Shown piece by piece: positions 6,046-62,310 of a DNA stretch of 64,000 nucleotides; the first letter of the stretch is position 1; every line of letters starts with the position of its first letter. Both the position numbers and the translations under genes were made by a program. The notes beneath the pieces are model-generated. The model was not told the DNA's origin. It worked only from the letters and a program-made list of their open reading frames with translations, and did no database searches. Origin of the DNA: Hyphomicrobiales bacterium (GTDB taxonomy: Bacteria; Pseudomonadota; Alphaproteobacteria; Rhizobiales; NORP267); NCBI GenBank assembly GCA_030688605.1, contig JAUYJB010000051.1, forward strand, positions 304 through 64,303, in the 5' to 3' direction.

Positions 6046-7031
6046 TGCGGTTCGTGCTCGGCAGAATGGGAGACTGGCTCGGCCTTTCGGGCGGCGGACA
6101 CGACCGCGCCCATCACCATGGTAGCGCCCACGGCGATCATAGTCACGCCCACGGCGTCGTCGACCCGTCGATCGCCGCCACCGAGCGCGGCATATGGGCC
6201 GTCAAATGGTCGTTCGTGCTGCTGGTCGCGACCGCGGCCCTGCAGGCCATCGTCGTCGTCGTCTCGGGGAGCATCGCGCTCCTGGCCGACACCATCCACA
6301 ATGTCGGCGATGCCGGCACGGCGATCCCGCTCTGGATCGCCTTCGTGCTGGCGCGGCGCAAGCCGAGCGCGCGGTTTCCCTACGGGCTTGGCCGGGTCGA
6401 GGACCTGGCCGGCGTCGCCATCGTCCTGATCATTCTCGCCAGCGCCCTCGTTGCCGGCTACGAGGCGATCGACCGGCTCGTCCACCCGCAGGTCATTCTC
6501 AACCTCGGCTGGGTCGCCGTGGCCGGCGTCATCGGCTTTCTCGGCAATGAGGCGGTTGCGGTCTTCCGCATCCGCGTCGGCCGCCAGATCGACAGTACGG
6601 CGCTGATCGCCGACGGCTATCACGCGCGCACCGACGGCCTGACCAGCCTCGCCGTGGTCCTCGGCGCGGCGGGCGTCTGGTTCGGCTATCCCCTCGCCGA
6701 CCCCGTCGTCGGCCTCGTCATCACCGCGGTCATCTTCGTCATCGTCTGGCAGTCGGCGAGAGCGGTCCTCACCCGCATGCTGGATGGCATCGACGCGGCG
6801 GTGCTCGACTTGCTTCGTCACTCGGCCGAAACCCAGCCGCGCGTCCGCTCGGTCGTCGGCGCCCGGGCGCGCTGGATCGGCCACCGGCTGCACGGCGAGC
6901 TGACGCTGAGGCTCGACGCCGCGGTGACGGCGCACGAGATCGCCGAGATCGGCGAGGCGATCCGCGCCCGTGCGCGCGGCCGTCTGCCGGCGCTGGAACG
7001 CCTGGTCATCGAGGCGGTGCCCGCCGAGTGA
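6045..7031 (+). CDS. dmeF: cation diffusion facilitator (CDF) family metal efflux transporter, DmeF-like
   Basis: His-rich N-terminus (HDRAHHHGSAHGDHSHAHG), then the CDF signature SGSIALLADTIHNVGDA and a C-terminal cytoplasmic domain. Pairing with an RcnR-like gene mirrors the rhizobial dmeRF Co/Ni efflux operon. Confidence 0.85.
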   Translation: MRFVLGRMGDWLGLSGGGHDRAHHHGSAHGDHSHAHGVVDPSIAATERGIWAVKWSFVLLVATAALQAIVVVVSGSIALLADTIHNVGDAGTAIPLWIAFVLARRKPSARFPYGLGRVEDLAGVAIVLIILASALVAGYEAIDRLVHPQVILNLGWVAVAGVIGFLGNEAVAVFRIRVGRQIDSTALIADGYHARTDGLTSLAVVLGAAGVWFGYPLADPVVGLVITAVIFVIVWQSARAVLTRMLDGIDAAVLDLLRHSAETQPRVRSVVGARARWIGHRLHGELTLRLDAAVTAHEIAEIGEAIRARARGRLPALERLVIEAVPAE

Positions 7032-7116
7032 GCTTGTTGCGGCCGCGGCCGGCCGCGAACTCCCGCATCGGCGTTGCGGTCATTTGCCGCCCGCCGGCCG
7101 CCGCCCCAAGATCTCC

Positions 7117-7132
7117 ATTTCAATCCTGAAAT
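7117..7132. promoter_or_regulatory. candidate upstream activator sequence: palindrome ATTTCA-N4-TGAAAT
   Basis: ATTTCAatccTGAAAT lies about 100 bp upstream of the sigma-54 promoter. Nearly the same 20-mer (CCATTTCAnnnnTGAAATCG) recurs at 12139-12158. A further TTTCA...TGAAA palindrome sits at 7154-7172. Confidence 0.5.
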
Positions 7133-7226
7133 CGTTTTTCAGTTCGGGGCGCTTTTCAATGCAATGTTGAAATGCGTTCCGGGTCAGCGGCGGCGAGATG
7201 CGCCGGTTTCCCGCCCCTTTGGCGCC

Positions 7227-7241
7227 TGGCATGCATGTTGC
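7227..7241 (+). promoter_or_regulatory. sigma-54 (-24/-12) promoter upstream of ubiX
   Basis: cTGGCATgcatgTTGCg has GG (7228-7229) and GC (7240-7241) separated by exactly 10 nt, close to the consensus TGGCAC-N5-TTGCW. A sigma-54 activator is encoded at the end of the same cluster. Confidence 0.65.
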
Positions 7242-7402
7242 GTTCCGGTGATGCGGCGCTGACTTCCACGAAAAACGGCTCGTTTCCGCCGCCGACCATT
7301 GGTTGCAAATGCCCCCGGGTGTCGGTATGGAAAGTGAAGATCATAAAGAGCCCGAGCCGCACGCGCGGTCATCGTCGCCATAAGAAATCGTTGGGAGGAC
7401 CA

Positions 7403-7999
7403 ATGAAGAAACTCGTGGTTGGTATGACCGGTTCGACCGGCGCCATTTTCGGCGTCCGCCTGTTGCAGGTTCTGGCCGATACCGATTGCGAGACCCATCT
7501 CATCATCTCCAAATGGGCGCAGCGGACCGTCGAGCACGAGACCTCCATGACCGTTGCCGACCTCAGGGCGCTCGCCACCGAGACCTACGGCATTGCCGAC
7601 ATGGGCGCCAAGGTCTCCTCGGGCTCGTTCCGCACCGACGGCATGGTCGTCGTGCCCTGCTCGATGCGCACGGTCGCAGCCATCGCCCACGGCAATGGCG
7701 ATCACCTGGTGCACCGCGCCGCGGACGTGATCCTGAAGGAGCGGCGCAAGCTGGTGCTCGTAGCCCGCGAGACGCCGCTCAACGATATCCACCTGGAAAA
7801 CCTGCTCAAGCTGTCGCGCATGGGCGTCACCATCCTGCCGCCCATGCCGGCCTTCTACAATCAGCCGAAATCGCTCGCGGACATGGTCGACCACATCGTC
7901 ATGCGCATCCTCGACCAATTCGACATGCCGCGGGACCTGATGAAGCGCTGGGACGGCAAGGTCCGCAGCCGCAGCCAGCGCGTCCGGCCGATCAAATGA
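7403..7999 (+). CDS. ubiX: UbiX family flavin prenyltransferase (prFMN synthase)
   Basis: MKKLVVGMTGSTGAIFGVRLLQVL...MVVVPCSMRTVAAIAHG...LVLVARETPL is canonical UbiX/Pad1. A GGGAGGA Shine-Dalgarno lies just upstream of the ATG at 7403. The track start at 7172 adds an implausible leader. Confidence 0.9.
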   Translation: MKKLVVGMTGSTGAIFGVRLLQVLADTDCETHLIISKWAQRTVEHETSMTVADLRALATETYGIADMGAKVSSGSFRTDGMVVVPCSMRTVAAIAHGNGDHLVHRAADVILKERRKLVLVARETPLNDIHLENLLKLSRMGVTILPPMPAFYNQPKSLADMVDHIVMRILDQFDMPRDLMKRWDGKVRSRSQRVRPIK

Positions 8000-8074
8000 T
8001 CCGGTCGGCGGACGAACGAAGAGCCAAAGCCATCTGAAACCGAGATCGTCACAGCAAGCCAGAGAGACCACCCC

Positions 8075-9649
8075 ATGAACATCAACGCACCGAAGAAAGT
8101 GGCTAAGTCCGGTGAGATTACCAGCCTGCGCTCCACCGTCGAGTGGCTGCGCGCCAACGGCGATCTCATCGAGACCTCCAAGGAGGTCAATCCCGATTTG
8201 GAGATCACCGGACTGCAGAAGCATTTCGACGGCGGCCCGCCGATGCTGTTCGAGAATGTGAAGGGCTATCCGCACGCGCGCGCGATCACCAACCTGTTCT
8301 CCGACATGAACGTGGTCAACCGCATGTTCGGCTTCGAGAGCCCGGCCGACCGGACCCGCAAGATCGCAGCCGCCTTCAAGAAGCCGCTGCCGACCGTCGA
8401 AGTCAGCCAGAACAAGGCACCGTGCCAGGAGCATGTGATCACCGACGATGTCGACGTCAACAAGTGGATCGTGGCGATCCGCCACACGGCGCTCGAGAGC
8501 GAATTGACCATCGGCTCCGGCATCCGCTGCGTGGTCGGCGACTATTTCGACGGCGGCGCCGATGTCGGCTACAACCGAATGAACTTCCGCTGGGGCAATG
8601 TCGGCACCTTCCAGATCTCCCCCGGCTCGCATATGTGGCAGGTTATCACCAAGCACTATCGCGACGAGGAGCCGATCCCGATTACCATGTGCTTCGGCGT
8701 GCCGCCGGCATGCACGCTGCTCGCCGGCGCCGCGTTCGACTATGTGATCCTGCCCAAGGGGGCCAACGAGCTGGCGGTCGCCGGCGCCATCCAGGGCGAG
8801 CCGGTGAAGCTGGTCAAGGCGCGCACGGTCGACGCCTGGGCGATCGCCGAGTCGGAATATGTGCTGGAAGGCTATATCCACCCGCGCGACAAGCGCTACG
8901 AGACGGCCGAGTCCGAGAAGGCCGGCGTACAGGGCCGTTTCCATTTCCATCCCGAATGGGCCGGCTATATGGGCAAGGCTTACAAGGCGCCGACCTTCCA
9001 CGTCACCGCGATCACCATGCGCAAGCCGAAATCCAAGCCGATCATCTTCCCGCTCGGCGTGCACACGGCCGACGACAACAATATCGATACCACGGTGCGC
9101 GAGGCGGCGATCTTCGAGCTGTGCGAGCGGCTGCAGCCGGGCATCGTCGTCGATGCGCACATCCCCTACTGCATGACCGACTGGGGCGGCTGCATCATCC
9201 AGGTGAAGAAGCGCAACAAGATCGAGGAGGGATGGCAGCGCAACTTCCTGTCCGCGATCCTGTCCTGCTCGCAGGGCATGCGGCTGGCCATCGCCGTCAG
9301 CGAGGATGTCGACATGTATTCCATGGACGACATCATGTGGTGCCTGACGACCCGCGTGAACCCGCGCGCCGACATCCTCAATCCGCTACCGGGCGGCATC
9401 GGCCAGACCTTCATGCCGTCCGAACGGCTGACCGCCGGCGACAAGCAATGGACCGCGTCCAACACCGAGTTCGAGGGCGGCATGGGCATCGACGCCACGG
9501 TGCCGTTCGGCTACGAGTCGGACTTCCACCGGCCCGTCTATCCGGTCGACAAGGTGGACCCGGCCGACTTCTTCTCGCCCGAGGACATCGCCAACGCCAA
9601 GAGCCGCATGCATGGCTGGATGTTGTCGCTGGCGCGGACCGGCCGCTAG
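8075..9649 (+). CDS. UbiD family (prFMN-dependent) decarboxylase, 524 aa; possible acyl-CoA decarboxylase
   Basis: The N-terminal LRSTVEWLRANGDLIETSKEVNPDLEITGLQKHFDGGPPMLFENVKGYPHARAITNLF is the typical UbiD N-terminal domain. The length and the neighbours (ubiX, two CoA-transferases) fit an accessory decarboxylase rather than the ubiquinone UbiD. Confidence 0.9.
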   Translation: MNINAPKKVAKSGEITSLRSTVEWLRANGDLIETSKEVNPDLEITGLQKHFDGGPPMLFENVKGYPHARAITNLFSDMNVVNRMFGFESPADRTRKIAAAFKKPLPTVEVSQNKAPCQEHVITDDVDVNKWIVAIRHTALESELTIGSGIRCVVGDYFDGGADVGYNRMNFRWGNVGTFQISPGSHMWQVITKHYRDEEPIPITMCFGVPPACTLLAGAAFDYVILPKGANELAVAGAIQGEPVKLVKARTVDAWAIAESEYVLEGYIHPRDKRYETAESEKAGVQGRFHFHPEWAGYMGKAYKAPTFHVTAITMRKPKSKPIIFPLGVHTADDNNIDTTVREAAIFELCERLQPGIVVDAHIPYCMTDWGGCIIQVKKRNKIEEGWQRNFLSAILSCSQGMRLAIAVSEDVDMYSMDDIMWCLTTRVNPRADILNPLPGGIGQTFMPSERLTAGDKQWTASNTEFEGGMGIDATVPFGYESDFHRPVYPVDKVDPADFFSPEDIANAKSRMHGWMLSLARTGR

Positions 9650-9660
9650 GACGGCGCAAA

Positions 9661-10884
9661 ATGCAGGCCCGGCCGGAGAGGGACCCCATGCTTGCTGGTA
9701 TCAGGGTTCTCGATCTCAGCAGCCGCTTGGGTTGGCCGGCCGGGCACATCCTCACCGACCTTGGCGCCGACGTCATCAAGATCGAACCGCCGGGCGCCGA
9801 TCTTGATGACGCGGACTGGCGCCCCTTCAACGTCTCCAAGCGGCTGTTGCAGATCGACCCGGCGAGCAAGGCCGGCCGCCGGGCGATATTGGCGATGATC
9901 ACCCGGGTTGACATTCTCATCGAGACCGCCGAGCCCGGCGATCCGGCGAGCGACTGGCTTGCCCCGGAGCGGATCAGGGCGCTCAATCCCGACCTCATTC
10001 ATGTTTCCATCACCCCTTACGGGCATACCGGCCCGCGCGCCGGCTGGCGCGGCACGGACCTGGAAATCATGGCCGCCGGCGGCGCCATGGGGCTCGCCGG
10101 CGAGCCCGACGGGGAGCCTTTGCGCATCTCCGTGCCGCAGGCTCATTCATGGGCCGGCGCGCATGCCGCGAGCGGCGCCCTCATGGCGCTGTTGCACCGC
10201 CAGGCGGGCGGCGGCGGCCAGCATGTCGACGTCTCCGCCCAGGCTTCGATCATCATCGCGCTCGCCCACGCGCCGGCCTTCGCCGACATGCTGGGCGTGG
10301 CGCCGAGCCGGGCAGGCTCGCGCCTTACCGGCCGCTCGGTGCACGGCGCCGTGTTCCGCGCCTTCTGGCGCTGCAAGGACGGCTATATCAACTTCGTCCT
10401 CTATGGCGGGGTGGCGGGCTGTCGAACCAATGAGGGCCTCACCGCGTGGATGCGCGCGAAGGGGTTCGACCTCGGTCCGCTCGCAGACCTCGACTGGAGG
10501 ACCTTCGACCCGACGAGAGTTACGCAGGAAGAGGTCGATCGGATCGAGGCGGCGCTCACGGCATTCTTCGCAAGCCTGTCCAAGTTCGAGTTCCTGCAGG
10601 GCGCCTGCGAGCGCGAGATGCTCGGCTATCCGGTCTCGAACGTCGCCGACATCGCCGCCGACCCGCAGCTCGACGCGCGCGGCTTCTGGCAGGATCTGGC
10701 CTTGCCCGGCGGCGGCAGCGAGCGCCACTGCGGCGCGTTCTACATCGCCGACGGCGCGCGCCCCGGCTTGCGCAATCCGGCGCTCGACGGCAGCGGAGAG
10801 CCCCACGAAATCCTCAAGGACCTTGAATTTTCGGATGCCGAGATCGAGGTCCTGCTCGACAAGAGCGCGGCGGGCGCGGCATGA
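9661..10884 (+). CDS. CaiB/BaiF family III CoA-transferase, subunit/paralogue 1 (catalytic Asp apparently replaced)
   Basis: The C-terminal third of the chimeric track ORF 8143..10884. GIRVLDLSSRLGWPAGHILTDLGADVIKIEPPG is the family III N-terminal motif. The start is ATG 9661 (AGGA upstream) or ATG 9688. The stop overlaps the next gene (ATGA at 10881-10884). Confidence 0.85.
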   Translation: MQARPERDPMLAGIRVLDLSSRLGWPAGHILTDLGADVIKIEPPGADLDDADWRPFNVSKRLLQIDPASKAGRRAILAMITRVDILIETAEPGDPASDWLAPERIRALNPDLIHVSITPYGHTGPRAGWRGTDLEIMAAGGAMGLAGEPDGEPLRISVPQAHSWAGAHAASGALMALLHRQAGGGGQHVDVSAQASIIIALAHAPAFADMLGVAPSRAGSRLTGRSVHGAVFRAFWRCKDGYINFVLYGGVAGCRTNEGLTAWMRAKGFDLGPLADLDWRTFDPTRVTQEEVDRIEAALTAFFASLSKFEFLQGACEREMLGYPVSNVADIAADPQLDARGFWQDLALPGGGSERHCGAFYIADGARPGLRNPALDGSGEPHEILKDLEFSDAEIEVLLDKSAAGAA

Positions 10885-12101
10885 GCGACACGCCACAGGC
10901 GCTGGCGGGCGTCAAGGTCGTCGAGTTCGGCGCCTATGCCGCGGGCCCGCACATCGGCAAGCTGCTCGGCAATTTCGGCGCCGTCGTCGCGCACGTGGAA
11001 TCGTTCCAGCGCCCGGACGGCTTTCGACTGCAATATCCGCCCTACAAGGACGGCGTCGTCGGGGTCAACCGCAGCGGCTGCTTCTCGATATTCAACGATT
11101 CCAAATATGGCGTCACCGTCGACGTCAAGAACCCGGCGGGCCTCGAGATCGCGCGGCGGCTGATGGACTGGGCCGACGTGGTGATCGAGAATATGCGACC
11201 CGGGGTCATGGACCGCATCGGCCTCGGCTATGCGGTGGCGTGCAGGACGAACCCCGGCCTCGTCATGCTTTCGACCTGCAATATGGGCCAGACCGGCCCG
11301 CGCGCCCAGACGCCGGGATTCGGCACCCAATTGTCGTCGCTGGCCGGATTCTGCGGCGCCATCGGCGAGCCGGACGGCTCGCCGATGCTTCTCTACGGCC
11401 CCTATATCGACTTCGTCGCCTCGATGATGGGATCGTCCGCCGTGCTCGCCGCGCTGGCGCGCCGCCGGGCCACCGGCAAGGGGACGCTGATCGATCTTTC
11501 GCAATATGAGACCGGCCTTCATTTCATGGCCGGCGCACTGTTGGCCTATCACCGCGACGGCGTCATCGCCGAGCGCCGGGGAAACCGCGACGACAAGGCC
11601 GCCCCGCACGGCGCCTACCGCTGCCGCGAGGACCGCTGGCTCGCTCTGTCGTGCTGGTCGGACGCCGAGTTCTCGGCCCTTGCCGAAACGCTCGGCAAAC
11701 CGGCGCTTGCCGCGGATGCGCGCTTCGCCGGCGCCGAAGAAAGGCTCAAAAATGTCAAGGCGCTCGATGCCGCTCTTGCGCCCCTGTTGCGCGAGCGCGA
11801 CGCGGAAGCCGCCGCCGAGACGCTGCAGGGGGCGGGCATCGCCGCCTATCCGGTGAACAGCATGGCCGACCTCTTCACCGACCCGCAGCTTGTCGAGCGC
11901 AGGCTCTGGCGCCGGCGCGAGCATGCGGAAATCGGCCAGCAGAGCTATGAAATGCCGGGCTTCGCGCTCACCGCGACCCCCGGCGACGTGACCCGCGCCG
12001 CGCCCATTCTCGGCGGCGACAACGAAACCGTGTTCAAACGGTTTCTCGGCCTGTCCGACGCCGAGTATGCCGCCTACGCCGAAAAGGGCGCCTTCGATTA
12101 G
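10881..12101 (+). CDS. CaiB/BaiF family III CoA-transferase, subunit/paralogue 2 (retains Asp in the GPYIDF context)
   Basis: 406-aa ORF. GVKVVEFGAYAAGPHIGKLLGNFGAVVAHVE, MRPGVMDRIGLGY and LLYGPYIDFVASMMGSSAVLAAL are typical of family III CoA-transferases. Confidence 0.9.
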   Translation: MSDTPQALAGVKVVEFGAYAAGPHIGKLLGNFGAVVAHVESFQRPDGFRLQYPPYKDGVVGVNRSGCFSIFNDSKYGVTVDVKNPAGLEIARRLMDWADVVIENMRPGVMDRIGLGYAVACRTNPGLVMLSTCNMGQTGPRAQTPGFGTQLSSLAGFCGAIGEPDGSPMLLYGPYIDFVASMMGSSAVLAALARRRATGKGTLIDLSQYETGLHFMAGALLAYHRDGVIAERRGNRDDKAAPHGAYRCREDRWLALSCWSDAEFSALAETLGKPALAADARFAGAEERLKNVKALDAALAPLLRERDAEAAAETLQGAGIAAYPVNSMADLFTDPQLVERRLWRRREHAEIGQQSYEMPGFALTATPGDVTRAAPILGGDNETVFKRFLGLSDAEYAAYAEKGAFD

Positions 12102-12140
12102 GCGGCGACCGGCGAACGGGCCCTTTCGAACCCCGCGGCC

Positions 12141-12156
12141 ATTTCAGATCTGAAAT
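12141..12156. promoter_or_regulatory. perfect 16-bp palindrome ATTTCAGATCTGAAAT (same motif as 7117-7132)
   Basis: Located between the CoA-transferase stop (12101) and the activator gene start. It is AT-rich, so it is not a GC-stem terminator. Its flanks CC...CG are shared with the 7115-7134 copy. Confidence 0.45.
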
Positions 12157-12246
12157 CGGCGCCCGCAACATGTCCCCGCCACACCGCGATTTTAGGCGGT
12201 TTTCCACATAGGATTGAATCCGGTCCCTGCCGCGCCTAGACTGGCC

Positions 12247-12262
12247 TTTTCAAACGTGAAAA
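12247..12262. promoter_or_regulatory. third copy of the TTTCA-N4-TGAAA palindrome (TTTTCAaacgTGAAAA)
   Basis: Perfect 6-bp arms with a 4-nt spacer, ending 12 nt upstream of the ATG at 12274 of the sigma-54 activator. This position suggests autoregulation. Confidence 0.45.
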
Positions 12263-12273
12263 AGGTTCCGGCC

Positions 12274-13881
12274 ATGGCTGACGGCAAGGAGGGGGTGGAG
12301 GTTCTGCGCCGCGCGCTGCCTTTGATCTCGGATGTGGCGGGCGGCGTGGCGATGGTGACCGACGGCGAGGGGTGCTGTCTTCACGCGGTCGATTTCGACG
12401 GCGACCCGCGCCCGGATCTCATTGGCCAGGTCAACGCGACCTGCCGCGACGCGGCGGCAAAGGGCAAGCCCATCGGCGCCGTCTCCGGCGAGTTCAATCA
12501 CCGCTTCTTCGCCATACCCATAGGCGGCTGTGTGCTCGCCGCCTCCAATGAGCGCCGCGCCGACCGCCAGAGCCGGCTGTTCGAGACCCTGAAGGAGACG
12601 TTGCCGCTGATCGCCACGGTGGCCGGCGGCGAGGCGGTGCTGTTCGACCATGGCGGCCGCCGCCTGCTTGCCGCCAATCCGCGCATGAAGGAGGCAAGCC
12701 CCGGCACCGGCGAAGTCTCGGAAAGCTGCCTCAAGGTGATGCGCTCGGGCAAGCCGGACATCAGCCCGTCGACGACCGAGATCGGCGCCACCGCGGTGCG
12801 CATCCCGATCTGCGCGGCCTTCGGCTTCGGCTTCAACAACGCCGAGTCGATCCGCCAGCGGGCCAAGCTCCTGAGCCAGGTCAGGCGCGAGCGGGCGGCG
12901 AAATATTCATGGGACGACGTGGTCGGCATCGACGGCGCCTTGAGGGCTCCCTTCGACGCGGCACGGCGAGCGGCGGCAACCCGTTCGCCGGTGATCATCT
13001 ACGGCGAAAGCGGCACCGGCAAGGAGCTGTTCGCCCAGGCGATCCACAATTCCTCGCCGCGCGCAGACAAGCCGTTCGTTGCCATCAACTGCGCGGCGCT
13101 GCCGGAAACGCTCGTGGAGACCACCTTCTTCGGCTATCTGGAAGGCGCGTTTACCGGCGCCCGGCGCGGCGGCCAGAAGGGCCTGTTCGAGCAGGCCGAC
13201 GGCGGCACGCTGCTGCTCGACGAGGTCAGCGAGATGCCGCTCGAGTTCCAGGCCAAGCTGTTGCGCACCTTGCAGGAGCGCGAGGTCACCCCTATCGGTG
13301 GCGCCAGGCCCGTTGCGGTCGACGTCCGGGTTATCTGCACCAGCAACCGGGACCTTGCCCAATGCGTCGCCGACGGCACCTGGCGGCCCGACCTGTTCTA
13401 CCGGCTCAACGTGGTCGACATTCACCTGCCGCCCCTGCGTGCGCACAAGGAGGATATCCCGGTGCTGGTCGAGGCGATCCGCGCCAAGCTGTCGGACCGC
13501 GACGGGCGGACCCTGGCGCCGATCCCGGCGCCGGTCGTGGAAAACCTCAAGGGCTATGACTGGCCGGGCAATGTACGCGAGCTGCAGAACGTGCTCGACC
13601 GGGCCTATAATCTCGCGGGCGACGGGCCGATCGCTATCCCGCACCTGCCGGTCTTTCTGGCCGCCCGGGCGCAGGCGGCGCCCGCCGGCGCGAGCGGCGA
13701 GGCCGACACAAGGCTGAGCACGCTGCTTTCGGCGACCGAGCGGCAGCTTCTGCTCGGCACGCTTGAGCGCTGCAACGGCAACCGCACCCGCGCGGCCAAG
13801 CAGCTGGGGATCAGCGTCACCACCCTGTGGCGCAGGCTGCGCAAGATCGAGCGGGCAGGGGGACGCCCGGCGCCGCGCTGA
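12274..13881 (+). CDS. sigma-54-dependent transcriptional activator (bEBP) with duplicated N-terminal sensor module
   Basis: AAA+ core with Walker A GESGTGKE, the sigma-54 contact loop GAFTGA (YLEGAFTGARRG), DEVSEMP, WPGNVRELQN, and a C-terminal Fis-type HTH (RTRAAKQLGISVTTLWRRLRK). The ATG at 12274 is preferred over the TTG at 12214. Confidence 0.9.
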   Translation: MADGKEGVEVLRRALPLISDVAGGVAMVTDGEGCCLHAVDFDGDPRPDLIGQVNATCRDAAAKGKPIGAVSGEFNHRFFAIPIGGCVLAASNERRADRQSRLFETLKETLPLIATVAGGEAVLFDHGGRRLLAANPRMKEASPGTGEVSESCLKVMRSGKPDISPSTTEIGATAVRIPICAAFGFGFNNAESIRQRAKLLSQVRRERAAKYSWDDVVGIDGALRAPFDAARRAAATRSPVIIYGESGTGKELFAQAIHNSSPRADKPFVAINCAALPETLVETTFFGYLEGAFTGARRGGQKGLFEQADGGTLLLDEVSEMPLEFQAKLLRTLQEREVTPIGGARPVAVDVRVICTSNRDLAQCVADGTWRPDLFYRLNVVDIHLPPLRAHKEDIPVLVEAIRAKLSDRDGRTLAPIPAPVVENLKGYDWPGNVRELQNVLDRAYNLAGDGPIAIPHLPVFLAARAQAAPAGASGEADTRLSTLLSATERQLLLGTLERCNGNRTRAAKQLGISVTTLWRRLRKIERAGGRPAPR

Positions 13882-13902
13882 CTTGGGGCCCATTGCGACC
13901 GG

Positions 13903-14718
13903 CTACGGCCTTGCGACGACGATGTGGGCGCGGGTCGGCAGCGTGACGCCTTCGCCGGTCAGGTAAGGGCCGAGGATCGCTTCGACATCGGCGAGGAAGT
14001 CGCGCTTGCGCGCCTCGAGAAGCTGAGCGAGCGCGTGGCGCGATGCAGGGGCACCTGCCGCGACGCCGTCCACGAAAGCGGAAACGGAGGGAAAACGCGC
14101 CTGCCGCTCTTCCGCGTGCACCGTAATTCCGCGGAACCCAGCCTGAAGCATCAACGCCTTGACCCTTTCCTTCTCGCCGAGGGAGAAGGGGCGCGATGCC
14201 GGCGCGATGTTCTGCCGCTCCAGCGCCCGGGCGATCGCGTAATGGCCCTTATTGTGCTCGATCGAGCACCACATGCTCGCGATGAGCCGGCCCGAGGGCT
14301 TGAGGACGCGGCGCAGATCGCTCAGGCCCGCGGCCGGGTCGGAGAAGAATTGCGGACCCTGCAGGCACAGGCAGAGATCGAAGGTCCGATCGGCGAAGGG
14401 AAGTTCGAGCACACTTTCGCAATGCCATTCGGCAACGATCCCCTCTTGCTCCGCGATCCGGCGCGCCACCGCGACCATGCCCGGGTCGTTGTCGACGCCC
14501 ACCAGCCGGCCCGCCGGCATGACGTGCGGCGCGGCGAGGCGGACGCCGATGCCGGTCCCGCAGGGCGCATCGAGCACCGTCTCGCCAGGCTCGGGCGCGG
14601 CGATGTCGACGGCGCGCGCCGCCCAGGGGCCGAAAATCCGCGTTACCAGATGGGTTTCATAGGCTTCGGCCGCCGCTTCCGCCGCACCGATCGCGCTCGC
14701 CGTCTCGCCGTCCCGCAT
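13903..14718 (-). CDS. class I SAM-dependent methyltransferase
   Basis: Motif I VLDAPCGTGIG, followed by VGVDNDPGMV and RVLKPSGRL, as in Methyltransf_11/25-like proteins. Confidence 0.8.
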   Translation of the reverse strand: MRDGETASAIGAAEAAAEAYETHLVTRIFGPWAARAVDIAAPEPGETVLDAPCGTGIGVRLAAPHVMPAGRLVGVDNDPGMVAVARRIAEQEGIVAEWHCESVLELPFADRTFDLCLCLQGPQFFSDPAAGLSDLRRVLKPSGRLIASMWCSIEHNKGHYAIARALERQNIAPASRPFSLGEKERVKALMLQAGFRGITVHAEERQARFPSVSAFVDGVAAGAPASRHALAQLLEARKRDFLADVEAILGPYLTGEGVTLPTRAHIVVARP

Positions 14719-14823
14719 ATTGCCCTCGTAGGGTCTTGCCCGCTCCTTGCCGGGGGCCGCCCCCCTGTCCCGGTGAAGGTCTCCATAGCCACCGGGATTC
14801 CGCCAATTTCTGCATTTTCAGCG

Positions 14824-14841
14824 CAAAAAACGATTTTTGCA
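14824..14841. promoter_or_regulatory. palindrome GCAAAAA-acga-TTTTTGC in the divergent methyltransferase/enolase-family intergenic region
   Basis: Perfect 7-bp arms with a 4-nt spacer. It is a candidate operator (possibly for the neighbouring GntR regulators). No binding data are available. Confidence 0.3.
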
Positions 14842-14949
14842 GCCGAAGCCCAAAGATGGAAGTAACGCCGTTTCCTTGAGGATTGACAAGAAATGGCTTA
14901 GCTCATAGCCTAAAGTTGCATTTTATAAGCAAAAAAACCAGGGGAGACG

Positions 14950-16149
14950 ATGAAGATCAAGGACATCCGGGCAAGCGTGCACCGGCTGCCCATCTATCTG
15001 CCCCTGTTCGACGCGCCCATCGATCATCGCGACCACGTTTTCTGCGAGGTCGAGACCGACGAGGGCGTGGTCGGCTTCGGCATGACGACGCGTTTCGTGG
15101 CCGGCGCCGTCGTCAGCATCCTCACCCGCGACATATTTCCGGCGGTCAAGGACATGGACCCGCGGGATCTTGAGCGGATCCACGAGCGGGTGCGCGCCGT
15201 TGTCAGCGAGCGCGGCTTCGTCACCGGCGCCAATCTCGCCGCCGCATCCTGCTTCGACCTGGCGCTGTGGGACATCATCGGCATCGAGGCCAACCGCACC
15301 GTGGCGCAGCTTCTCGGCGGCTACCGCGACCACGCCACCGTCTACGTGACCTACGGCTTCGGCAACTACGACAAGGACCAGCTTGTCGAACTGGCGCGCC
15401 GGCTGATCGCGCAAGGCCACACGCGGCTGAAGATGCTGGTCGGGGTGCCGGGACTGGGCTGGCGCGAGGACGCAGCCCGGGTACGCCATGTCCGCGACGC
15501 CATTGGCGCCGACATCGATCTCGCGCTCGACGCCAACGAATCCTATTCGTTGGCCGAGGCCATGAAGCTTTGCCGCGCGGTCGAGGATTGCGACATTGCC
15601 TGGCTCGAGGACCCCGTCCACCGCAACGAAGTCAGGGACCTCGCCCATCTGCGCCGGCACAGCACCATCCCGCTCGCCGCCGGACAGATGGAGGGCTACG
15701 CCCTGCGCTTCCGCGAGTTCATCGAGAACGACGCCATCGATATCCTGCTGGCGAACCCGATGTTCAATGGCGGCATGACCGAGACTCGCAAAGTGGCGGC
15801 TCTGGCGCAGATCTACAACAAGCCGCTGTCCGACGCTGGCGGCGCGACCTATTTCAGCCTCCACCACGTGGCGGCGTTCCGCAACGGGACCCACGTGGAA
15901 TGCCATTTCAAGTCCCAATTCATGGAGGAGAATCTATTCGTTGACGCGCCGAAGCCGACGCAGGGAAAAATGAAAGTACCAAATGCCCCCGGTTTCGGCC
16001 TCAAGGTCAACCGGGATCTGTTGAAGGATAGCCGCATCGACAAGCCATCGGTGCCAAAAGCCGCGCGGCGCGCCCCGGCCGCCGAAGCGGCTCCGGAAGC
16101 CCCGGATCAGGACATCGCTCGAGTGGGAGCAAATGGGAGGAGACAGTGA
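14950..16149 (+). CDS. mandelate racemase/muconate lactonizing enzyme (enolase superfamily) protein
   Basis: MKIKDIR...EVETDEGVVGFG capping domain. Barrel metal-ligand contexts LALDANESY, AWLEDP and AAGQMEG, plus DILLANPMFNGGMTE. The Ala/Pro-rich C-terminal tail and the stop overlap the dctP GTG (GTGA at 16146-16149). Confidence 0.85.
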   Translation: MKIKDIRASVHRLPIYLPLFDAPIDHRDHVFCEVETDEGVVGFGMTTRFVAGAVVSILTRDIFPAVKDMDPRDLERIHERVRAVVSERGFVTGANLAAASCFDLALWDIIGIEANRTVAQLLGGYRDHATVYVTYGFGNYDKDQLVELARRLIAQGHTRLKMLVGVPGLGWREDAARVRHVRDAIGADIDLALDANESYSLAEAMKLCRAVEDCDIAWLEDPVHRNEVRDLAHLRRHSTIPLAAGQMEGYALRFREFIENDAIDILLANPMFNGGMTETRKVAALAQIYNKPLSDAGGATYFSLHHVAAFRNGTHVECHFKSQFMEENLFVDAPKPTQGKMKVPNAPGFGLKVNRDLLKDSRIDKPSVPKAARRAPAAEAAPEAPDQDIARVGANGRRQ

Positions 16150-17150
16150 TCACTTATCTGAAGAAGACCGCTTTGCTGGTGGCGCTTGTGACCGCCGCCG
16201 CACTCATCGCCGCGCCGGAGGCCTCTGCGCAGGCCTTGAAATTGAGGCTTTCGGTGGAAAGCACGCCCGGCGCATCCACCCAGCACATGCTGGCCCAGTT
16301 CCGCGACTTTCTGAAGCAGGAGCTCGGCGACGGCGTCGATATCGAGTTCTTCGACAGCGGGACCCTGGGCGACGAGATCGTCCATATGCAGCAGGTGCGC
16401 ACCGGGCAGCTCGACGTCATCCCGATCGGTTCCGACGCCGTCCAGCTCGACTCGAAATTCGCCGTATTCGACATTCCCTTCCTGTTCTCCAACCGCGACG
16501 AGGTTGTCGCGGTGCTGGACGGAGAGATCGGCGAGCAGCTCGACAAGTCGTTTCAGGAAAAGGCCGGCCTCAAGGTCATCGGCTTCGGCGAGATCGGCTT
16601 TCGCCACATCTCCAACAATGAGCGGCCGGTCCGGGTGCCGGATGACCTGAAAGGTCTGAAATTGCGGACGCCGGGCAGCAAGACGCGCGTCCTGTCCTTC
16701 GAGATGCTCGGCGCTTCGCCGATCTCGATGAACATCGGCGAGGTGTATCTCGCCCTGCAGCAAGGCGTCATCGACGGCCAGGAGAACCCGCTCAGCAACA
16801 TCCGCAAATGGTCTTGGTTCGAGGTGCAAAAATACATTTCCATGTCGAACCACGTTTACACGCCGATTACGCTCGTCATGAACCTCAAGCGCTATGACTC
16901 TCTGACCGACGAGCAGCGCAGCGCGGTCCTCCGCGCCGGTGCGAAGGCGGCCGTGGCAAGCCGCCAGTACGGTGCCGACAACGACGCCAAGCTCCTGGAC
17001 GAGATCAAGACGCTCTCCAAGGGCCAGGTGGAGTTCAACGACATCGATTCTGCGGCCTTCAAGGCGGCAACCAAGCCGATCGCGAAGGAAATCGCCAAGA
17101 TCGCCGGCGAGGACTTTACCGACGCGGTAATGGCCGCCGTCAGCAAATAA
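16146..17150 (+). CDS. dctP: TRAP transporter substrate-binding protein (DctP family)
   Basis: Signal peptide (LLVALVTAAALIAAPEASA), then LRLSVESTPG...QVRTGQLDV...FDIPFLF...LKLRTPGS...VIDGQENPL, typical of DctP. GGGAGGAG Shine-Dalgarno precedes the GTG at 16146. Confidence 0.9.
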   Translation: MITYLKKTALLVALVTAAALIAAPEASAQALKLRLSVESTPGASTQHMLAQFRDFLKQELGDGVDIEFFDSGTLGDEIVHMQQVRTGQLDVIPIGSDAVQLDSKFAVFDIPFLFSNRDEVVAVLDGEIGEQLDKSFQEKAGLKVIGFGEIGFRHISNNERPVRVPDDLKGLKLRTPGSKTRVLSFEMLGASPISMNIGEVYLALQQGVIDGQENPLSNIRKWSWFEVQKYISMSNHVYTPITLVMNLKRYDSLTDEQRSAVLRAGAKAAVASRQYGADNDAKLLDEIKTLSKGQVEFNDIDSAAFKAATKPIAKEIAKIAGEDFTDAVMAAVSK

Positions 17151-17162
17151 GCACCGCCTTGC

Positions 17163-17201
17163 AAGTGGCGGCATGCAACGGGACGCATGCCGCCACTTTT
17201 T
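17163..17201 (+). terminator. intrinsic terminator/attenuator hairpin between dctP and dctQ
   Basis: AAGTGGCGGCATGC (17163-17176) pairs perfectly with GCATGCCGCCACTT (17185-17198) across an 8-nt loop and is followed by a T-run. It starts 13 nt after the dctP stop. Confidence 0.6.
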
Positions 17202-17334
17202 CCGACATTGCCCCGCAAGCGGGCATGTGCCGTCCTTCGCCGGTCGCGGCGGCCGTGCGAGCGGAGCAAAGCGTTAGACAAGGAGGCGCTTTGGTGTTGA
17301 ATCCAGCAAGGCCAGGGAAAAAGAGGGGCAGATC

Positions 17335-17934
17335 ATGAGCGACGAACCGCAGGGCGAGGCGGGCGCCGCCGCGCCGAAAGCCGGCGCGCTTGCCGACCGG
17401 ATCGCCGAAGCGACTCGTCGGTTTGAACTCTACGACCCGGACCAGGGCCTGCCGCTCATCGAGCGCCTGGTCAACCGAGCTGTCGAGGCCATCGGCGCGT
17501 TGGCCTTGTGCGGCATCGTCGCCGTTGTGTTTTCGAACGCGCTGGCGCGCTACCTGTTGAACACCAGCTTCCTGTGGGCCGAGGAGGTGGTGCTGCTTCT
17601 GGTGCCGTGGCTGGCGATGACCGGCGTCTTCCTGTCGGTGCGCCGCGGCTCCATGATCCGCATCGACTTCTTCTTCGAGAAACTGCCGGCCAAGTGGCGC
17701 CGCCCGATCGGTGCCGCCGGCTATGCGATCAGCATCGCCGTCCTCCTCTTCATGGGCTGGGTCTCATTCGATTTCCTGCGGCTGTTCGGCGGCGACGTCG
17801 CCGTCTATCTGAACATCCGCATTGGATGGTCGACCTCGGCGCTCAGCTTCGGCGCCTTCGGCGCGGCGCTCGCCTTCCTGGTCGCGTTCCACCATGAGCG
17901 TCGCAGGGAAAAGCGCAGGGCGTTGCGGTCATGA
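17335..17934 (+). CDS. dctQ: TRAP transporter small permease (DctQ family)
   Basis: 199-aa ORF with four hydrophobic segments (NALARYLLNTSFLWAEEVVLLLVPWLAMTG). Its position between dctP and dctM fits. The stop overlaps the dctM start (ATGA). Confidence 0.85.
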   Translation: MSDEPQGEAGAAAPKAGALADRIAEATRRFELYDPDQGLPLIERLVNRAVEAIGALALCGIVAVVFSNALARYLLNTSFLWAEEVVLLLVPWLAMTGVFLSVRRGSMIRIDFFFEKLPAKWRRPIGAAGYAISIAVLLFMGWVSFDFLRLFGGDVAVYLNIRIGWSTSALSFGAFGAALAFLVAFHHERRREKRRALRS

Positions 17935-19211
17935 CCGGCGCGCTCATCTCGATCGCGTTTCTGTGCGGGCTTTTGGTGCTGCGCGTGCCGATGCTGGTCT
18001 CCATCGCCGCCGCGGTGATCCTCAATTTCTACTTCTCCGGCGCCTGGGCGCTGACCCTGCCGCAGACCATGATGTCGGGAATGAACCGCTTCGTGCTCAT
18101 CGCCTTGCCGCTGTTCGTGCTCGCCGGCGGGCTGATGAACGCCGGCGGCATATCGGCGCGGCTGTTCGAGTTCGCCCGCGCCATCGTCGGGCCGCTGCGC
18201 GGCGGGCTCGCCCACGTCAACGTGGTGACCAGCATGTTCTTCGGCGGCATGATCGGCTCCTCGACGGCCGATCTCGCCGGCACCGGCTCGATCGTGATTC
18301 CGGCGATGAAGGAGAACGGCTACCCGGCCGCCTTCTCCGCCGCGGTTACCGCGTCGTCGGCCGGCATCGGGCCGATGATCCCGCCAAGCTCGCCGATGAT
18401 CCTCTATTCGGCGGTGACCGGCGTGTCGCTCGGCGCGCTGTTCCTCGCCGGCCTCATTCCCGGCATCCTGCTCGGCCTGTCGCAGATGCTGATCATCGCC
18501 TATCTGGCGCGGCGGCGCGGCTGGAAGCCCTATTCCGCCTTCGCCTTCGCGGAGGTCTTGCGGACGGGAAAGCGCGCCTTCCTGTCATTCGGCCTGCCGG
18601 TGATCATCGTCGGCGGGCTCGTCGTCGGGGTGTTCACGCCGACGGAAGCGGGCTCCTTCGCGGTCATGTACGCCTTTGTCCTGGCAACTTTCGTTTACGG
18701 CCATCTCGATCTGAAGGCGCTCTACCGCGTCGTCGTCAACTCCGTGCAGCTCACCGGCGAATTGCTGATCATCGTCAGCCTGTCTTTCGCGCTCGGCGCG
18801 GGCCTCACCAACGCCCACGTTCCCGAGGCGCTGGTTCACCTCATCGACTTTTTCGTCGTCGGCGAGAGCGAGTATCTGCGCCTCCTGGCGCTGGTGTTCC
18901 TGGCCATCCTTGCCGGCATGATCCTCGACCCGCTGATCCCGGTGCTGGTGCCGATCATCCTGCCGACGCTCCTCGCCTTCAATGTCGACCTCATCCATTT
19001 CGGCGTGCTGATGGTGATCGCGGTGGTGATCGGGCAGGTGACGCCGCCGATGGCCATCGCGCTGATCATTGCCGGGCGCATCGCCGATGTCGACCAGATG
19101 GAGGTGCTGAAGGCCAACATGCCCTTCTTCTGGGGCATCGTCGTCTTTTTGCTGCTCGCCATCGCCGTGCCGGGGGTGGCGACCTGGCTGCCCTCGCTGA
19201 TGCGGGGGTGA
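17931..19211 (+). CDS. dctM: TRAP transporter large permease (DctM family)
   Basis: 426-aa polytopic membrane protein. PLFVLAGGLMNAGGIS, MFFGGMIGSSTADLAGTGSIVIPAMK and IHFGVLMVI are typical of DctM. Confidence 0.9.
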   Translation: MTGALISIAFLCGLLVLRVPMLVSIAAAVILNFYFSGAWALTLPQTMMSGMNRFVLIALPLFVLAGGLMNAGGISARLFEFARAIVGPLRGGLAHVNVVTSMFFGGMIGSSTADLAGTGSIVIPAMKENGYPAAFSAAVTASSAGIGPMIPPSSPMILYSAVTGVSLGALFLAGLIPGILLGLSQMLIIAYLARRRGWKPYSAFAFAEVLRTGKRAFLSFGLPVIIVGGLVVGVFTPTEAGSFAVMYAFVLATFVYGHLDLKALYRVVVNSVQLTGELLIIVSLSFALGAGLTNAHVPEALVHLIDFFVVGESEYLRLLALVFLAILAGMILDPLIPVLVPIILPTLLAFNVDLIHFGVLMVIAVVIGQVTPPMAIALIIAGRIADVDQMEVLKANMPFFWGIVVFLLLAIAVPGVATWLPSLMRG

Positions 19212-19226: not shown

Positions 19227-20180
19227 CTAAAGATGCAGCTCGCCGAGCGGCGCGGCGGCGCGGCTGGTCTCGCGCAGGCGCATCGCCGCGCGCGAGGCGT
19301 CGCCGAGATGCTCGCGCATGATCTCGGCGGCGCGCTCATTCTCGCCTGCCTCCAACAGGTCGATGATGCGCAGATGCTCGCGGCACTGGCGCGCGAGCCT
19401 GTCGGTGTCGATGGCGCCCTGATGCTCGATTAGCCGGCGCAGCCGGTTCTGCCGCTTTAATGCCTCGAGATAGAACGGGTTGCCCGAGCAGCGCATCAGC
19501 ATCTCGTGAAAGGCCGCGCCGGTCTCGAACACCTCCTCGCGGCTTGCCCGGCTCGCATCTTCGGCCAGCAGCCGTTCCTGGGCCAGGCGGGCCTCGGCGA
19601 AGGCCCGTCTGTCGACTTTGAATGCAGGTTCCAGCAACGCCGCCGGCTCGATCCCCATGCGAAACTGGTAGCTCTGGGCGTAGGCCTTCTGCGAGGTAAG
19701 GACAGGCAGGAAGGCCCAGCCATAGCCCGGCTTGCGCTCGATCCAGCCATTCTGCTCGATCTTCAACAGCATGGCCTGAAGCTGCGAGCGGGAGATGTTG
19801 TAGTGGCGCATCAGGTCGGCCTCCCGGAACGCCTCCGGGAGGCGCCCGGCAAGCCGGTCGGCGACCAGCGACAGAAAGCTCTCATCGTCGGCATCGAGCG
19901 GCTTGAGGGCATCGCGCGCGCGGGCAAGACCGGCCCTGTCGGCGGTCAGGAAGAAGCCGCGATTGGGCCTGCTCTCGACGATGTCCAGGCGCTTCAGAAG
20001 CTCGAGCGCCTCGCGGATCGGCGACGGCGATACGCCGAACGCCTGCGCCAGGCGCGAGGCCGGCAGATGATCGCCGACGGTCCACTCGTTATCGCGCGCC
20101 TGTTCGACGATCCGGCGGGCAAGTTCCGGCGCCAATCCTGCCGGGGCGAGATTTGTGGGCGGCCGCATGGCTTTGCTCAT
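19227..20180 (-). CDS. GntR family transcriptional regulator (two wHTH modules + FCD-like domain)
   Basis: The N-terminal LPASRLAQAFGVSPSPIREALELLKRLDIVESRPNRGFFL is a GntR wHTH. A second wHTH-like segment follows (LMRHYNISRSQLQAMLLKIEQNGWIERKPGYGWAF), then a helical FCD-like C-terminus. Confidence 0.85.
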   Translation of the reverse strand: MSKAMRPPTNLAPAGLAPELARRIVEQARDNEWTVGDHLPASRLAQAFGVSPSPIREALELLKRLDIVESRPNRGFFLTADRAGLARARDALKPLDADDESFLSLVADRLAGRLPEAFREADLMRHYNISRSQLQAMLLKIEQNGWIERKPGYGWAFLPVLTSQKAYAQSYQFRMGIEPAALLEPAFKVDRRAFAEARLAQERLLAEDASRASREEVFETGAAFHEMLMRCSGNPFYLEALKRQNRLRRLIEHQGAIDTDRLARQCREHLRIIDLLEAGENERAAEIMREHLGDASRAAMRLRETSRAAAPLGELHL

Positions 20181-20189
20181 CGCGCCGCG

Positions 20190-21128
20190 TCAAAGGTTAG
20201 CCGGCGCCGGCGGCGGCAGCGGGTGCTCGTCGTGATACTTGGCCTTCACGTAACCGGAAATGTCCAGGTGCCGGCGCATCAGCTCCGCCGCCCCGGGGCA
20301 GTCGCCGGCCTCGATCCGATCGATGATCTCCAGATGCTCCCGGCACTGGCGCTGAATCCGATCCTTGTCCAGCGTGATGCGATATTCCATGAGCCGCCGC
20401 AGCCGGTTCTGGCGCCTGAGCTCATCCAAGGCATAGGGGTTGCCGGAGCAGCCGACCACCGTCTCGTGGAAATCGCAACCGAGCTCGAACACGTGCACCG
20501 GCGTCAACCGCTCCATGTCGGCACCCAATAGCTCGGACTGCTGGGCCCGACAGTGAAGGTAGATCTTCTCATCCATGTGATAGCCCGGCTCGAGGATCGC
20601 CGCTGGCTCCACCGCCTTGCGGAAGGAATAGCTCTGAAACACCGCTTCGCGGGAGGTGAGCACCGGCAGGAACTGCCATCCATAGCCGGGCTTGCGGGCA
20701 ACCCACCCTTCCTTGGCCATGCGCGCCAGCATGCGCCGGAGTTGCGACCGGGTGACCGGGTAGCGGCGCGCCAGCTCAGCCTCGGTGACGCGGTCGGCAA
20801 GCCGGCCGATCAGCCGGTCCTGGGCGACGCCTAAATATAGCTCGTCCTCCAAAGGCACGGAGATGAGCCGCCGCACCTCCGGCAATGCCGATCGCGCGGC
20901 GGCGAGAAAGAAACCGCGGTTCCTGTGCGCCTCGACCACATTGAGGCTCGACAGCTTGAGCAGGGCGTTACGCACCGGCGAACGGGAGACCTTGAAAGCG
21001 TCGGCGAAGCGCTGGGCGGCAAGATGCTCGCCGCGCTGCAGATGGTTGCGCTCGATATAGTCGACGATCCTCAGCGCCACCTGATTCGTCAGGCTGGCAT
21101 TGATCTCTCTTTCCGATACGACCGTCAT
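20190..21128 (-). CDS. GntR family transcriptional regulator, paralogue of 19227-20180
   Basis: Same architecture as its neighbour: LAAQRFADAFKVSRSPVRNALLKLSSLNVVEAHRNRGFFL, then LARRYPVTRSQLRRMLARMAKEGWVARKPGYGWQF, then an FCD-like C-terminus. The two proteins are collinear along their whole length. Confidence 0.85.
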   Translation of the reverse strand: MTVVSEREINASLTNQVALRIVDYIERNHLQRGEHLAAQRFADAFKVSRSPVRNALLKLSSLNVVEAHRNRGFFLAAARSALPEVRRLISVPLEDELYLGVAQDRLIGRLADRVTEAELARRYPVTRSQLRRMLARMAKEGWVARKPGYGWQFLPVLTSREAVFQSYSFRKAVEPAAILEPGYHMDEKIYLHCRAQQSELLGADMERLTPVHVFELGCDFHETVVGCSGNPYALDELRRQNRLRRLMEYRITLDKDRIQRQCREHLEIIDRIEAGDCPGAAELMRRHLDISGYVKAKYHDEHPLPPPAPANL

Positions 21129-25337: not shown

Positions 25338-25645
25338 ATCACGTTTCTATTGGCCCAACGGGTAAAGCCGGTGCCACGTGCCCGATTGAGCCGTTTGACC
25401 GCGACACATGCTCTTCTCCTGCCCATCCCCCCGTTCCGGTCGCTTGCCCAGGACAACCGACAGCCGGGAGCCTCGCTAAGGAAGGTTGACGCAACACGGG
25501 ACGGACAGACGGAGGCCGCTCGGTTCGCCCCGCCTCACCCGAGCCGGTCGCCGCCGCCACTATGCGGAGCGGAGATGAATGGTTGGTAAAATGCGTGCGC
25601 GATTGCCGGCCGAACGGCTTGCGCCCTCCCCTGCGGCATGGTTTC

Positions 25646-28564: not shown

Positions 28565-28576
28565 CGCACGCGCCTG

Positions 28577-47229: not shown

Positions 47230-47319
47230 GGAGGGGTGGCCGAGTGGTTGAAGGCGCACGCCTGGAACGCGTGTATACGGGACACCGTATCGAGGGTTCG
47301 AATCCCTCTCCCTCCGCCA
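47230..47319 (+). tRNA. tRNA-Ser (anticodon GGA)
   Basis: GGAGGGG acceptor pairs with TCCCTCC, followed by G-CCA. Anticodon stem CACGC/GCGTG with loop CTGGAAC (anticodon GGA). Long variable arm (TACGG..CCGTA) and T-arm GAGGG-TTCGAAT-CCCTC. Confidence 0.9.
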
Positions 47320-47529
47320 AATATCGCCAATAACAGCCAAAAATTCAATGATCGGCGGATCACCGGAATTCACCGGCCCGCCGGCATATCCTCAGGGAAA
47401 CCGCCAGCTTGCGGGCTTTAAGGCACCGGCACCCCCGAACCGTGCCTTGTGGGTCGAACTGTGGGTTCTAGACTGGACTAGGCCCGCCATCGAAGCTAGT
47501 GTCGCCCTCCCTCACCAGAGGATCGACCC

Positions 47530-62222: not shown

Positions 62223-62282
62223 GCGGCCTCGCGTCTCTCGTGTCCACATCCAGAGTGTGAATCACGAATGCCGCGCCAAGGG

Positions 62283-62310
62283 AATCTGGAGGGTTCAATC
62301 TGGAGGGTTC
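62283..62310. repeat. perfect tandem duplication of a 14-mer (AATCTGGAGGGTTC x2)
   Basis: Positions 62283-62296 and 62297-62310 are identical. The repeat sits just outside the IS5 transposase start, so it could be an IS end or a junction artefact. Confidence 0.6.

Follow-up and report, generated by a model that had tools for sequence, protein, structure and literature searches.

o-Phthalate, a breakdown product of plasticizers, is activated and decarboxylated by gene clusters of a type described from Aromatoleum aromaticum EbN1, Thauera chlorobenzoica, and Azoarcus. These clusters encode a succinyl-coenzyme A (CoA):o-phthalate CoA-transferase that is specific for the ortho isomer (PMC13040137 section 2.4; PMC8269228; bioRxiv 10.1101/2022.07.29.502009), together with a prenylated flavin mononucleotide (prFMN)-dependent phthaloyl-CoA decarboxylase (Pcd) that intercepts phthaloyl-CoA, an unstable compound, and a UbiX-like prenyltransferase (PMC13040137 section 2.4; bioRxiv 10.1101/2022.07.29.502009). 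Succinyl-CoA as CoA donor and ortho specificity are known for the EbN1 and PA01 enzymes (PMC13040137), and a metagenomic study took 74-85% identity to the Pcd proteins of EbN1, A. toluclasticus, and Thauera as marking Pcd (PMC8269228). Here we analyze a 64,000-nucleotide (nt) stretch of DNA, hereafter the window, from Hyphomicrobiales bacterium (GCA_030688605.1, contig JAUYJB010000051.1, positions 304-64,303, forward strand). The window carries, in succession, ubiX, pcd, the CoA-transferase genes sptA and sptB, and a gene for a sigma-54 activator (Table 1). As judged from sequence comparison, this module is probably the known set for anaerobic (oxygenase-independent) activation and decarboxylation of o-phthalate, present as a chromosomal copy in an uncultured alphaproteobacterium and placed under sigma-54 control.

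The Pcd protein shows matches to UbiD_N, UbiD, and UbiD_C, all above the Pfam cut-offs. A search of PDB sequences matches it over its full length to the solved Pcd of T. chlorobenzoica (PDB 8pmk, 8oz5; 953 bits, E = 1e-286), whereas the next UbiD subfamily, AroY (protocatechuate decarboxylase), reaches 167 bits. Counted on the printed alignment, 390 of 508 positions are identical to the T. chlorobenzoica enzyme (76.8%), with no gaps, and the central region contains long stretches that are identical or nearly identical to those of the solved enzyme. The same four proteins, at 61-77% identity, are encoded on EbN1 plasmid 2, in Thauera chlorobenzoica 3CB-1, and in Azoarcus sp. PA01. In particular, EbN1 plasmid 2, which carries the one close relative found by a tblastn search of plasmids, has the gene order of the window (ubiX-pcd-CoA-transferase-CoA-transferase), has the same 4-base-pair (bp) overlap between the CoA-transferase genes, and encodes proteins that are 66% (UbiX), 76% (Pcd), 61% (SptA), and 63% (SptB) identical to those of the window. 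Because Pcd, SptAB, and UbiX match characterized proteins at these identities and in the same gene order, the enzyme set is, by orthology, the ordinary ubiX-pcd-sptA-sptB set predicted to convert o-phthalate to benzoyl-CoA, and not an analogue with an open substrate.

The original prediction, made from the sequence of the window, had proposed five open reading frames (ORFs) forming this locus, and ORF positions and profile matches corroborate all five. Its assignment of roles, with UbiX as the source of prFMN and a family III CoA-transferase of two subunits providing the substrate of a UbiD-family decarboxylase, is upheld by Pfam and NCBIfam matches and by orthology, and its choice of anaerobic o-phthalate degradation as the closest known system agrees with the Thauera and EbN1 comparisons. 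Its further suggestion, that the module is a mere analogue acting on an unknown substrate, does not survive: Pcd, SptAB, and UbiX are straightforward orthologues, and the comparison of the UbiD-family protein with other subfamilies points the same way.

Each CoA-transferase subunit is orthologous to its own EbN1 counterpart; at loci where a true SptB is absent (L001, L012), what the SptB query finds is the region of SptA, at only ~27%. The best solved-structure match to both subunits is BbsEF (PDB 9fn0), with SptA matching chain A (118 bits) and SptB matching chain B (195 bits). BbsEF is likewise a heteromer of two paralogues that uses succinyl-CoA, but the relationship is distant, the substrate is another one, and BbsEF is not orthologous to SptAB. 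Placed among known families, as the original prediction had proposed, the CoA-transferases are thus orthologues of the EbN1 pair, with BbsEF as a distant match only. In a Rhodospirillaceae metagenome-assembled genome (MAG), sptA and sptB read as a single 790-residue ORF (L002:11611-13983), an apparent natural fusion of both subunits, which fits SptA and SptB acting as one heteromeric enzyme. The true start of sptA in the window is probably the ATG at 9688, since it follows a GGAGAGG ribosome-binding site and gives a protein whose N-terminus agrees with those of its EbN1 and L002 counterparts.

The four catabolic genes are read as a single operon because the intergenic gaps are short (ubiX-pcd, 75 bp; pcd-sptA, 11 bp; sptA-sptB, -4 bp, the stop and start codons overlapping as ATGA) and because a scan of 6900-15000 predicted no terminator except for one terminator-like site on the wrong strand. 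A ribosome-binding site, GGGAGG, precedes the ubiX ATG. By orthology, SptAB, a heteromeric family III enzyme, would move CoA from succinyl-CoA onto o-phthalate, and the labile phthaloyl-CoA would at once be decarboxylated to benzoyl-CoA by Pcd, with prFMN made by the co-encoded UbiX. The genes of the pathway that consumes the benzoyl-CoA would lie outside the window.

The enzymes thus offer nothing mechanistically new; the new part is the regulatory layer, in which a sigma-54 promoter and a readable operator are combined with a dedicated activator whose sensor domain is unannotated. In EbN1, an IclR-family gene precedes the cluster, whereas the window has a sigma-54 activator and a -24/-12 promoter. 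The original prediction had called the system as configured undescribed, which holds for the regulatory layer only, the catabolic module being the known one. We found no description of sigma-54 control of phthalate clusters in the literature searched, which is not proof that none exists.

Related loci were collected by a scan of one genome per species, which returned Pcd relatives in 327 stretches of species-level genomes; locus comparisons used the best 79 of these (73-89% identical), and 80 loci were usable in the promoter scan. The promoter motif by itself is not significant, with 2.7 one-mismatch matches expected by chance in 64 kb. We sought TGGCAY-N5-TTGC in the 500 bp upstream of the first cluster gene. 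The exact motif is present in all three other loci that have an orthologue of the activator (4/4 counting the window) and in 0/77 of the loci that have none; across 1.39 Mb of related loci, both strands included, it turns up just 7 times. This distribution, 4/4 against 0/77, indicates that the promoter is not a chance match. The sigma-54 promoter proposed from the GG-N10-GC spacing is hence supported by its co-occurrence with the activator. An Rfam scan of the ~150-nt 5' untranslated region (UTR) for a leader RNA found nothing.

The region upstream of the promoter contains a palindrome, TTTCA-N4-TGAAA, and a wider inverted repeat, TTTCAA-N7-TTGAAA (Table 1), as the original prediction had noted in placing palindromes ~100 bp upstream. 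The TTTCA-N4-TGAAA motif has three exact matches in the window, as compared to none in 100 shuffles, and is absent from the other 77 loci (1.33 Mb). The wider repeat makes a weaker case than the N4 sites: its spacing differs and it was assessed in the window only. In L002, the motif is present upstream of the sigma-54 promoter and before the activator gene, where the copy at 14098 lies 13 bp before the activator ATG at 14125, and a third copy lies downstream. We read the palindromes as candidate binding sites of the activator: one or both of those upstream of the operon would serve the catabolic promoter, and the two before the activator gene would serve autoregulation. From this anatomy and the comparison among loci, ubiX-pcd-sptA-sptB would be transcribed from the sigma-54 promoter at 7227-7242, opened by the activator encoded downstream, and the activator would bind TTTCA-N4-TGAAA ~105 bp upstream of that promoter. 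The two further copies of the palindrome before the activator gene suggest autoregulation, for which the copy at 12248-12261 is the likely site.

Wiring of the operon to RpoN through a dedicated activator, as first proposed, is supported by the co-occurrence of promoter and activator and by their shared palindromes. An accidental link, with the activator controlling some other target and the catabolic genes transcribed from an unrecognized sigma-70 promoter, would be compatible with the chance-level frequency of the motif taken alone and with the 172-bp gap between sptB and the activator gene. We consider it very improbable, given the joint presence of promoter and activator in 4/4 loci versus 0/77, the fact that in two loci the promoter and the activator gene are each preceded by the same palindrome, and the result of a sigma-70 scan of 6900-15000, which gave one weak promoter-like site inside pcd and none in the ubiX upstream region. 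Moreover, L001, the closest relative lacking the activator, has a MarR-like gene and no sigma-54 motif.

The activator has the GAFTGA motif in its translation, as had been predicted. It shares the layout of sensor domain, GAFTGA-containing AAA+ domain, and Fis-type helix-turn-helix (HTH) domain with XylR, DmpR, and MobR (V4R type) and with DhaR (GAF-PAS), sigma-54 activators of aromatic catabolism whose N-terminal domains bind ligands, and it is like them also in the place of its activator sites, ~100 bp before a -24/-12 promoter, and of its gene, beside the target operon. It differs from them in its sensor, which is not V4R/XylR_N; the nearest are the DhaR N-terminal region and PpsR, by fold only, and the family is tiny. 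Specifically, the sensor (residues 1-215) matches no Pfam model, even at E <= 10, and no NCBIfam model, and a search against PDB sequences gave two chance-level matches only (E = 0.11 and 0.86). A word-indexed homologue search gave only two matches; the family emerged from an exhaustive HMMER search, with only 48 members among 1.84 billion cluster representatives. Most of these members are 520-545 residues long and are sigma-54 activators that carry the domain N-terminally.

An AlphaFold (AF2) model of the sensor, computed from a 30-sequence alignment, has a mean predicted local distance difference test (pLDDT) score of 92.4 and contains two tandem helix/beta-sheet modules. Foldseek comparison of the model with the PDB returned tandem PAS, GAF-PAS, and dCache sensors (the DhaR N-terminal region, PpsR, DctB, and chemoreceptor ligand-binding domains) at E ~1e-6, with low TM-scores that place the likeness at the fold level only. 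The fold of the sensor is thus modeled with confidence, as tandem PAS-like.

Only three loci have, beside the cluster, an orthologue that matches the activator over its full length, sensor included (55-64% identical). In L002 it lies downstream, as in the window; in L014 (a Geobacter MAG) and L018 (a Desulfuromonadaceae MAG) it is divergent and upstream. More distant relatives of the sensor adjoin other catabolic clusters, of the tripartite ATP-independent periplasmic (TRAP) transporter/HpcH-lyase/PrpD type and of the glutamate-mutase, ICL, and PrpF type. Because the relatives adjoin such catabolic clusters, members of the family appear to sense aromatic or other organic acids. A further relative, 46% identical in the sensor, is part of a sigma-54 activator whose gene ends a phenylphosphate synthase/carboxylase-like cluster (L082:94-9641) comprising PPDK_N, three UbiD paralogues, Phenyl_P_gamma, HAD, and NUDIX; it ties the sensor family more widely to anaerobic aromatic pathways of the UbiD type.

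In the window, the tandem PAS-like domain would most likely sense the inducer, which could be o-phthalate or a CoA ester of the pathway. We put forward tentatively, as a proposal somewhat more apt to fail than to hold, that the activator and its three orthologues constitute an unannotated family of tandem PAS-like sensors whose phthalate branch binds o-phthalate directly. If so, this would be the first sigma-54-type sensor for o-phthalate, recruited independently of the IclR and MarR regulators, and promoter, operator, and activator would form a ready set for an o-phthalate biosensor. According to a recent review, no o-phthalate biosensor has been built so far, and the gene clusters are a resource for one (PMC13040137, section 3.4). 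The activator/promoter pair is a concrete candidate part for such a biosensor, which is the main practical value of the finding.

Comparison of the related loci indicates that the regulator is an exchangeable part. The best 79 loci belong to Alpha-, Beta-, and Gammaproteobacteria, Desulfuromonadales, and others, with alphaproteobacterial MAGs nearest to the window. IclR orthologues lie beside the cluster in 12 loci, EbN1 included. L001, whose cluster is the one most closely related to that of the window (89% Pcd identity), carries upstream a MarR-like gene in divergent orientation (L001:162-671, - strand) and no sigma-54 motif; a palindrome, TTAGATATCTAA, is present at L001:860-900, where the window has its sigma-54 elements. 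The MarR-like gene and TTAGATATCTAA in place of the sigma-54 elements indicate that the regulator has been swapped between close relatives. The catabolic core is accordingly found together with regulators of at least three types: IclR, MarR-like, and sigma-54 activator.

The same enzymes could have another physiological substrate, either a substituted phthalate or another ortho-dicarboxylated (hetero)aromatic acid, in an alphaproteobacterial clade that has diverged in specificity; SptA and SptB being only 61-63% identical to the EbN1 enzymes, the regulator and sensor being wholly unlike the IclR type of the studied strains, and benzoyl-CoA genes being absent nearby would all be in keeping with this. 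We nevertheless regard it as unlikely, because Pcd aligns without gaps to the solved enzyme at 76.8% identity, with identical or nearly identical central stretches, because 74-85% Pcd identity has been treated as marking Pcd (PMC8269228), and because the activator orthologues accompany equally conserved clusters in very distant hosts.

Several observations nonetheless weigh against o-phthalate activation and decarboxylation under sigma-54 control as the reading of the locus. First, the two Desulfuromonadales loci with activator orthologues, L014 and L018, lack the exact TTTCA-N4-TGAAA motif, and only repeats of the related form TTCA-N4-TGA lie between their divergent genes; the operator assignment consequently rests on two alphaproteobacterial loci. 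Second, sptAB orthologues directly follow pcd in roughly half of the best loci, and many Xanthobacteraceae loci have none; many alphaproteobacterial Pcd-like genes at 74-76% identity are without adjoining sptAB, so that high Pcd identity is no guarantee of an identical pathway context. Third, benzoyl-CoA pathway genes (benzoyl-CoA reductase or box), rpoN, and any obvious phthalate transporter are absent from the 64-kb window. Fourth, the division of labor within the transferase is a lead only: SptB Asp177 aligns with the catalytic Asp169 of formyl-CoA transferase (Frc), where SptA has His162. This alignment suggests one catalytic subunit (SptB) and one non-catalytic subunit (SptA, probably without the catalytic Asp).

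In L028, L030-L033, L035-L037, L039-L045, and many other Xanthobacteraceae and Alphaproteobacteria, no sptAB orthologues lie within 10 kb, and ubiX is often 3-8 kb away. In such soil lineages, the acid may be activated by other means, or the Pcd-like enzyme may have a different use.

The absence of benzoyl-CoA genes had been taken by the original prediction as a hint that the substrate may not be phthalate. This hint loses its force, since the ~36 kb viewed around the EbN1 cluster likewise contain no annotated benzoyl-CoA-pathway gene; a 64-kb window is therefore uninformative on this point. The same absence, and the known movement of phthalate clusters on plasmids and transposons (PMC8269228), could also be accounted for by an isolated, horizontally acquired remnant lacking the downstream benzoyl-CoA pathway, which would be a dead end or serve detoxification and would not support growth. 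A remnant of this kind is distinctly unlikely. The cluster has a G+C content of 63-70%, matching the 65.8% of the window and giving no anomaly that would indicate recent transfer; no mobile-element genes flank it; and every ORF is intact, as is the set of promoter, operator, and activator. The EbN1 surroundings speak against a remnant for the reason just given. Unlike the EbN1 cluster, which lies on a conjugative plasmid amid insertion sequence (IS)/transposase and transfer genes, the cluster of the window is chromosomal and without flanking IS elements.

EbN1 plasmid 2 also has two ubiX-pcd pairs ~10 kb apart (L080:11321-13551 and L080:21446-25548) and a third UbiD gene. Only the second pair leads into two CoA-transferase genes; the first leads into an ABC transporter.

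The transporter, too, differs among loci. The EbN1 cluster is followed by a TAXI-type TRAP transporter (binding protein and fused permease), whereas the operon of the window has no TAXI-TRAP or other transporter; L018 instead continues into a Liv-type ABC transporter, which argues that the transporter is a swappable part. A TRAP transporter at 16146-19211 had been cited in support of the module. The transporter is there, but it is of the DctPQM and not the TAXI type, stands in another gene context, and has no operator palindrome. We rejected it as a part of the module: an opposite-strand methyltransferase gene lies between it and the phthalate genes, and the identity of its genes to the TRAP genes that accompany other phthalate clusters is <=30%. 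The TRAP genes follow a gene for an enolase-superfamily (MR_MLE) acid-sugar dehydratase and are followed by two GntR/FCD regulators, and the transporter is probably unrelated to the phthalate module.

Table 1. Features of the catabolic operon and its regulatory elements in the window
Feature	Position	Strand	Basis and remarks
Candidate upstream activator site 1, palindrome TTTCAATCCTGAAA (TTTCA-N4-TGAAA)	7118-7131		Centered ~105 bp upstream of the -24 GG
Wider inverted repeat TTTCAATGCAATGTTGAAA (TTTCAA-N7-TTGAAA), possible second activator site	7154-7172		Between site 1 and the promoter
Sigma-54 (-24/-12) promoter TGGCATGCATGTTGCG	7227-7242	+	GG at 7228-7229, GC at 7240-7241; predicted 5' UTR of ~150 nt before ubiX
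ubiX, flavin prenyltransferase making prFMN for Pcd	7403-7999	+	Pfam Flavoprotein; NCBIfam TIGR00421, 260 bits; 66% identical to UbiX of the EbN1 cluster
pcd, phthaloyl-CoA decarboxylase, UbiD family, prFMN-dependent, 524 residues	8075-9649	+	PDB 8pmk/8oz5 match; 76% identical to EbN1
sptA, more divergent subunit of succinyl-CoA:o-phthalate CoA-transferase	9661-10884 (ORF)	+	CoA_transf_3, 198 bits; 61% identical to first EbN1 CoA-transferase
sptB, CoA-transferase subunit, probably catalytic	10881-12101	+	CoA_transf_3, 340 bits; 63% identical, full length, to second EbN1 CoA-transferase
Candidate operator palindrome TTTCAGATCTGAAA	12142-12155		sptB-activator intergenic region
Candidate operator palindrome TTTCAAACGTGAAA	12248-12261		Ends 12 bp before the activator ATG
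Sigma-54 enhancer-binding protein: sensor (~residues 1-215), AAA+ with GAFTGA, Fis-type HTH	12274-13881	+	Sigma54_activat, AAA_lid_14, HTH_8

Elsewhere in the window, the two GntR/FCD regulators that follow the TRAP genes are encoded in tandem at 19227-21128 (- strand); each has ~315 residues, with ~90 extra residues between the HTH and FCD domains. An unusual pair is present at 25562-30385, where a 1000-residue caspase-domain (Peptidase_C14) protein with a PPC domain is encoded beside a convergent gene for a 602-residue protein with TPR and a DUF900 alpha/beta-hydrolase domain. At 47230-50798, a tRNA-Ser (GGA) gene is followed directly by genes for a phage-type integrase (47530-48810) and a Mutator-family transposase, and IS5-type and IS91-type transposases are encoded at the far end of the window (61425-63831). 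These features probably mark a genomic island, holding a gene for a 2823-residue cyclic beta-1,2-glucan synthase-like protein (51166-59637, - strand). The window also encodes an IalB homologue; cyclic beta-1,2-glucan synthase-like proteins and IalB are typical of Alphaproteobacteria.

The o-phthalate pathway has been studied in denitrifying Betaproteobacteria and in sulfate reducers, but it is widespread beyond these groups, which bears on estimates of anoxic phthalate turnover. Many of the 327 species-level genomes with Pcd relatives are those of soil and groundwater Alphaproteobacteria, and the finding is evidence that the o-phthalate pathway is common in this class.

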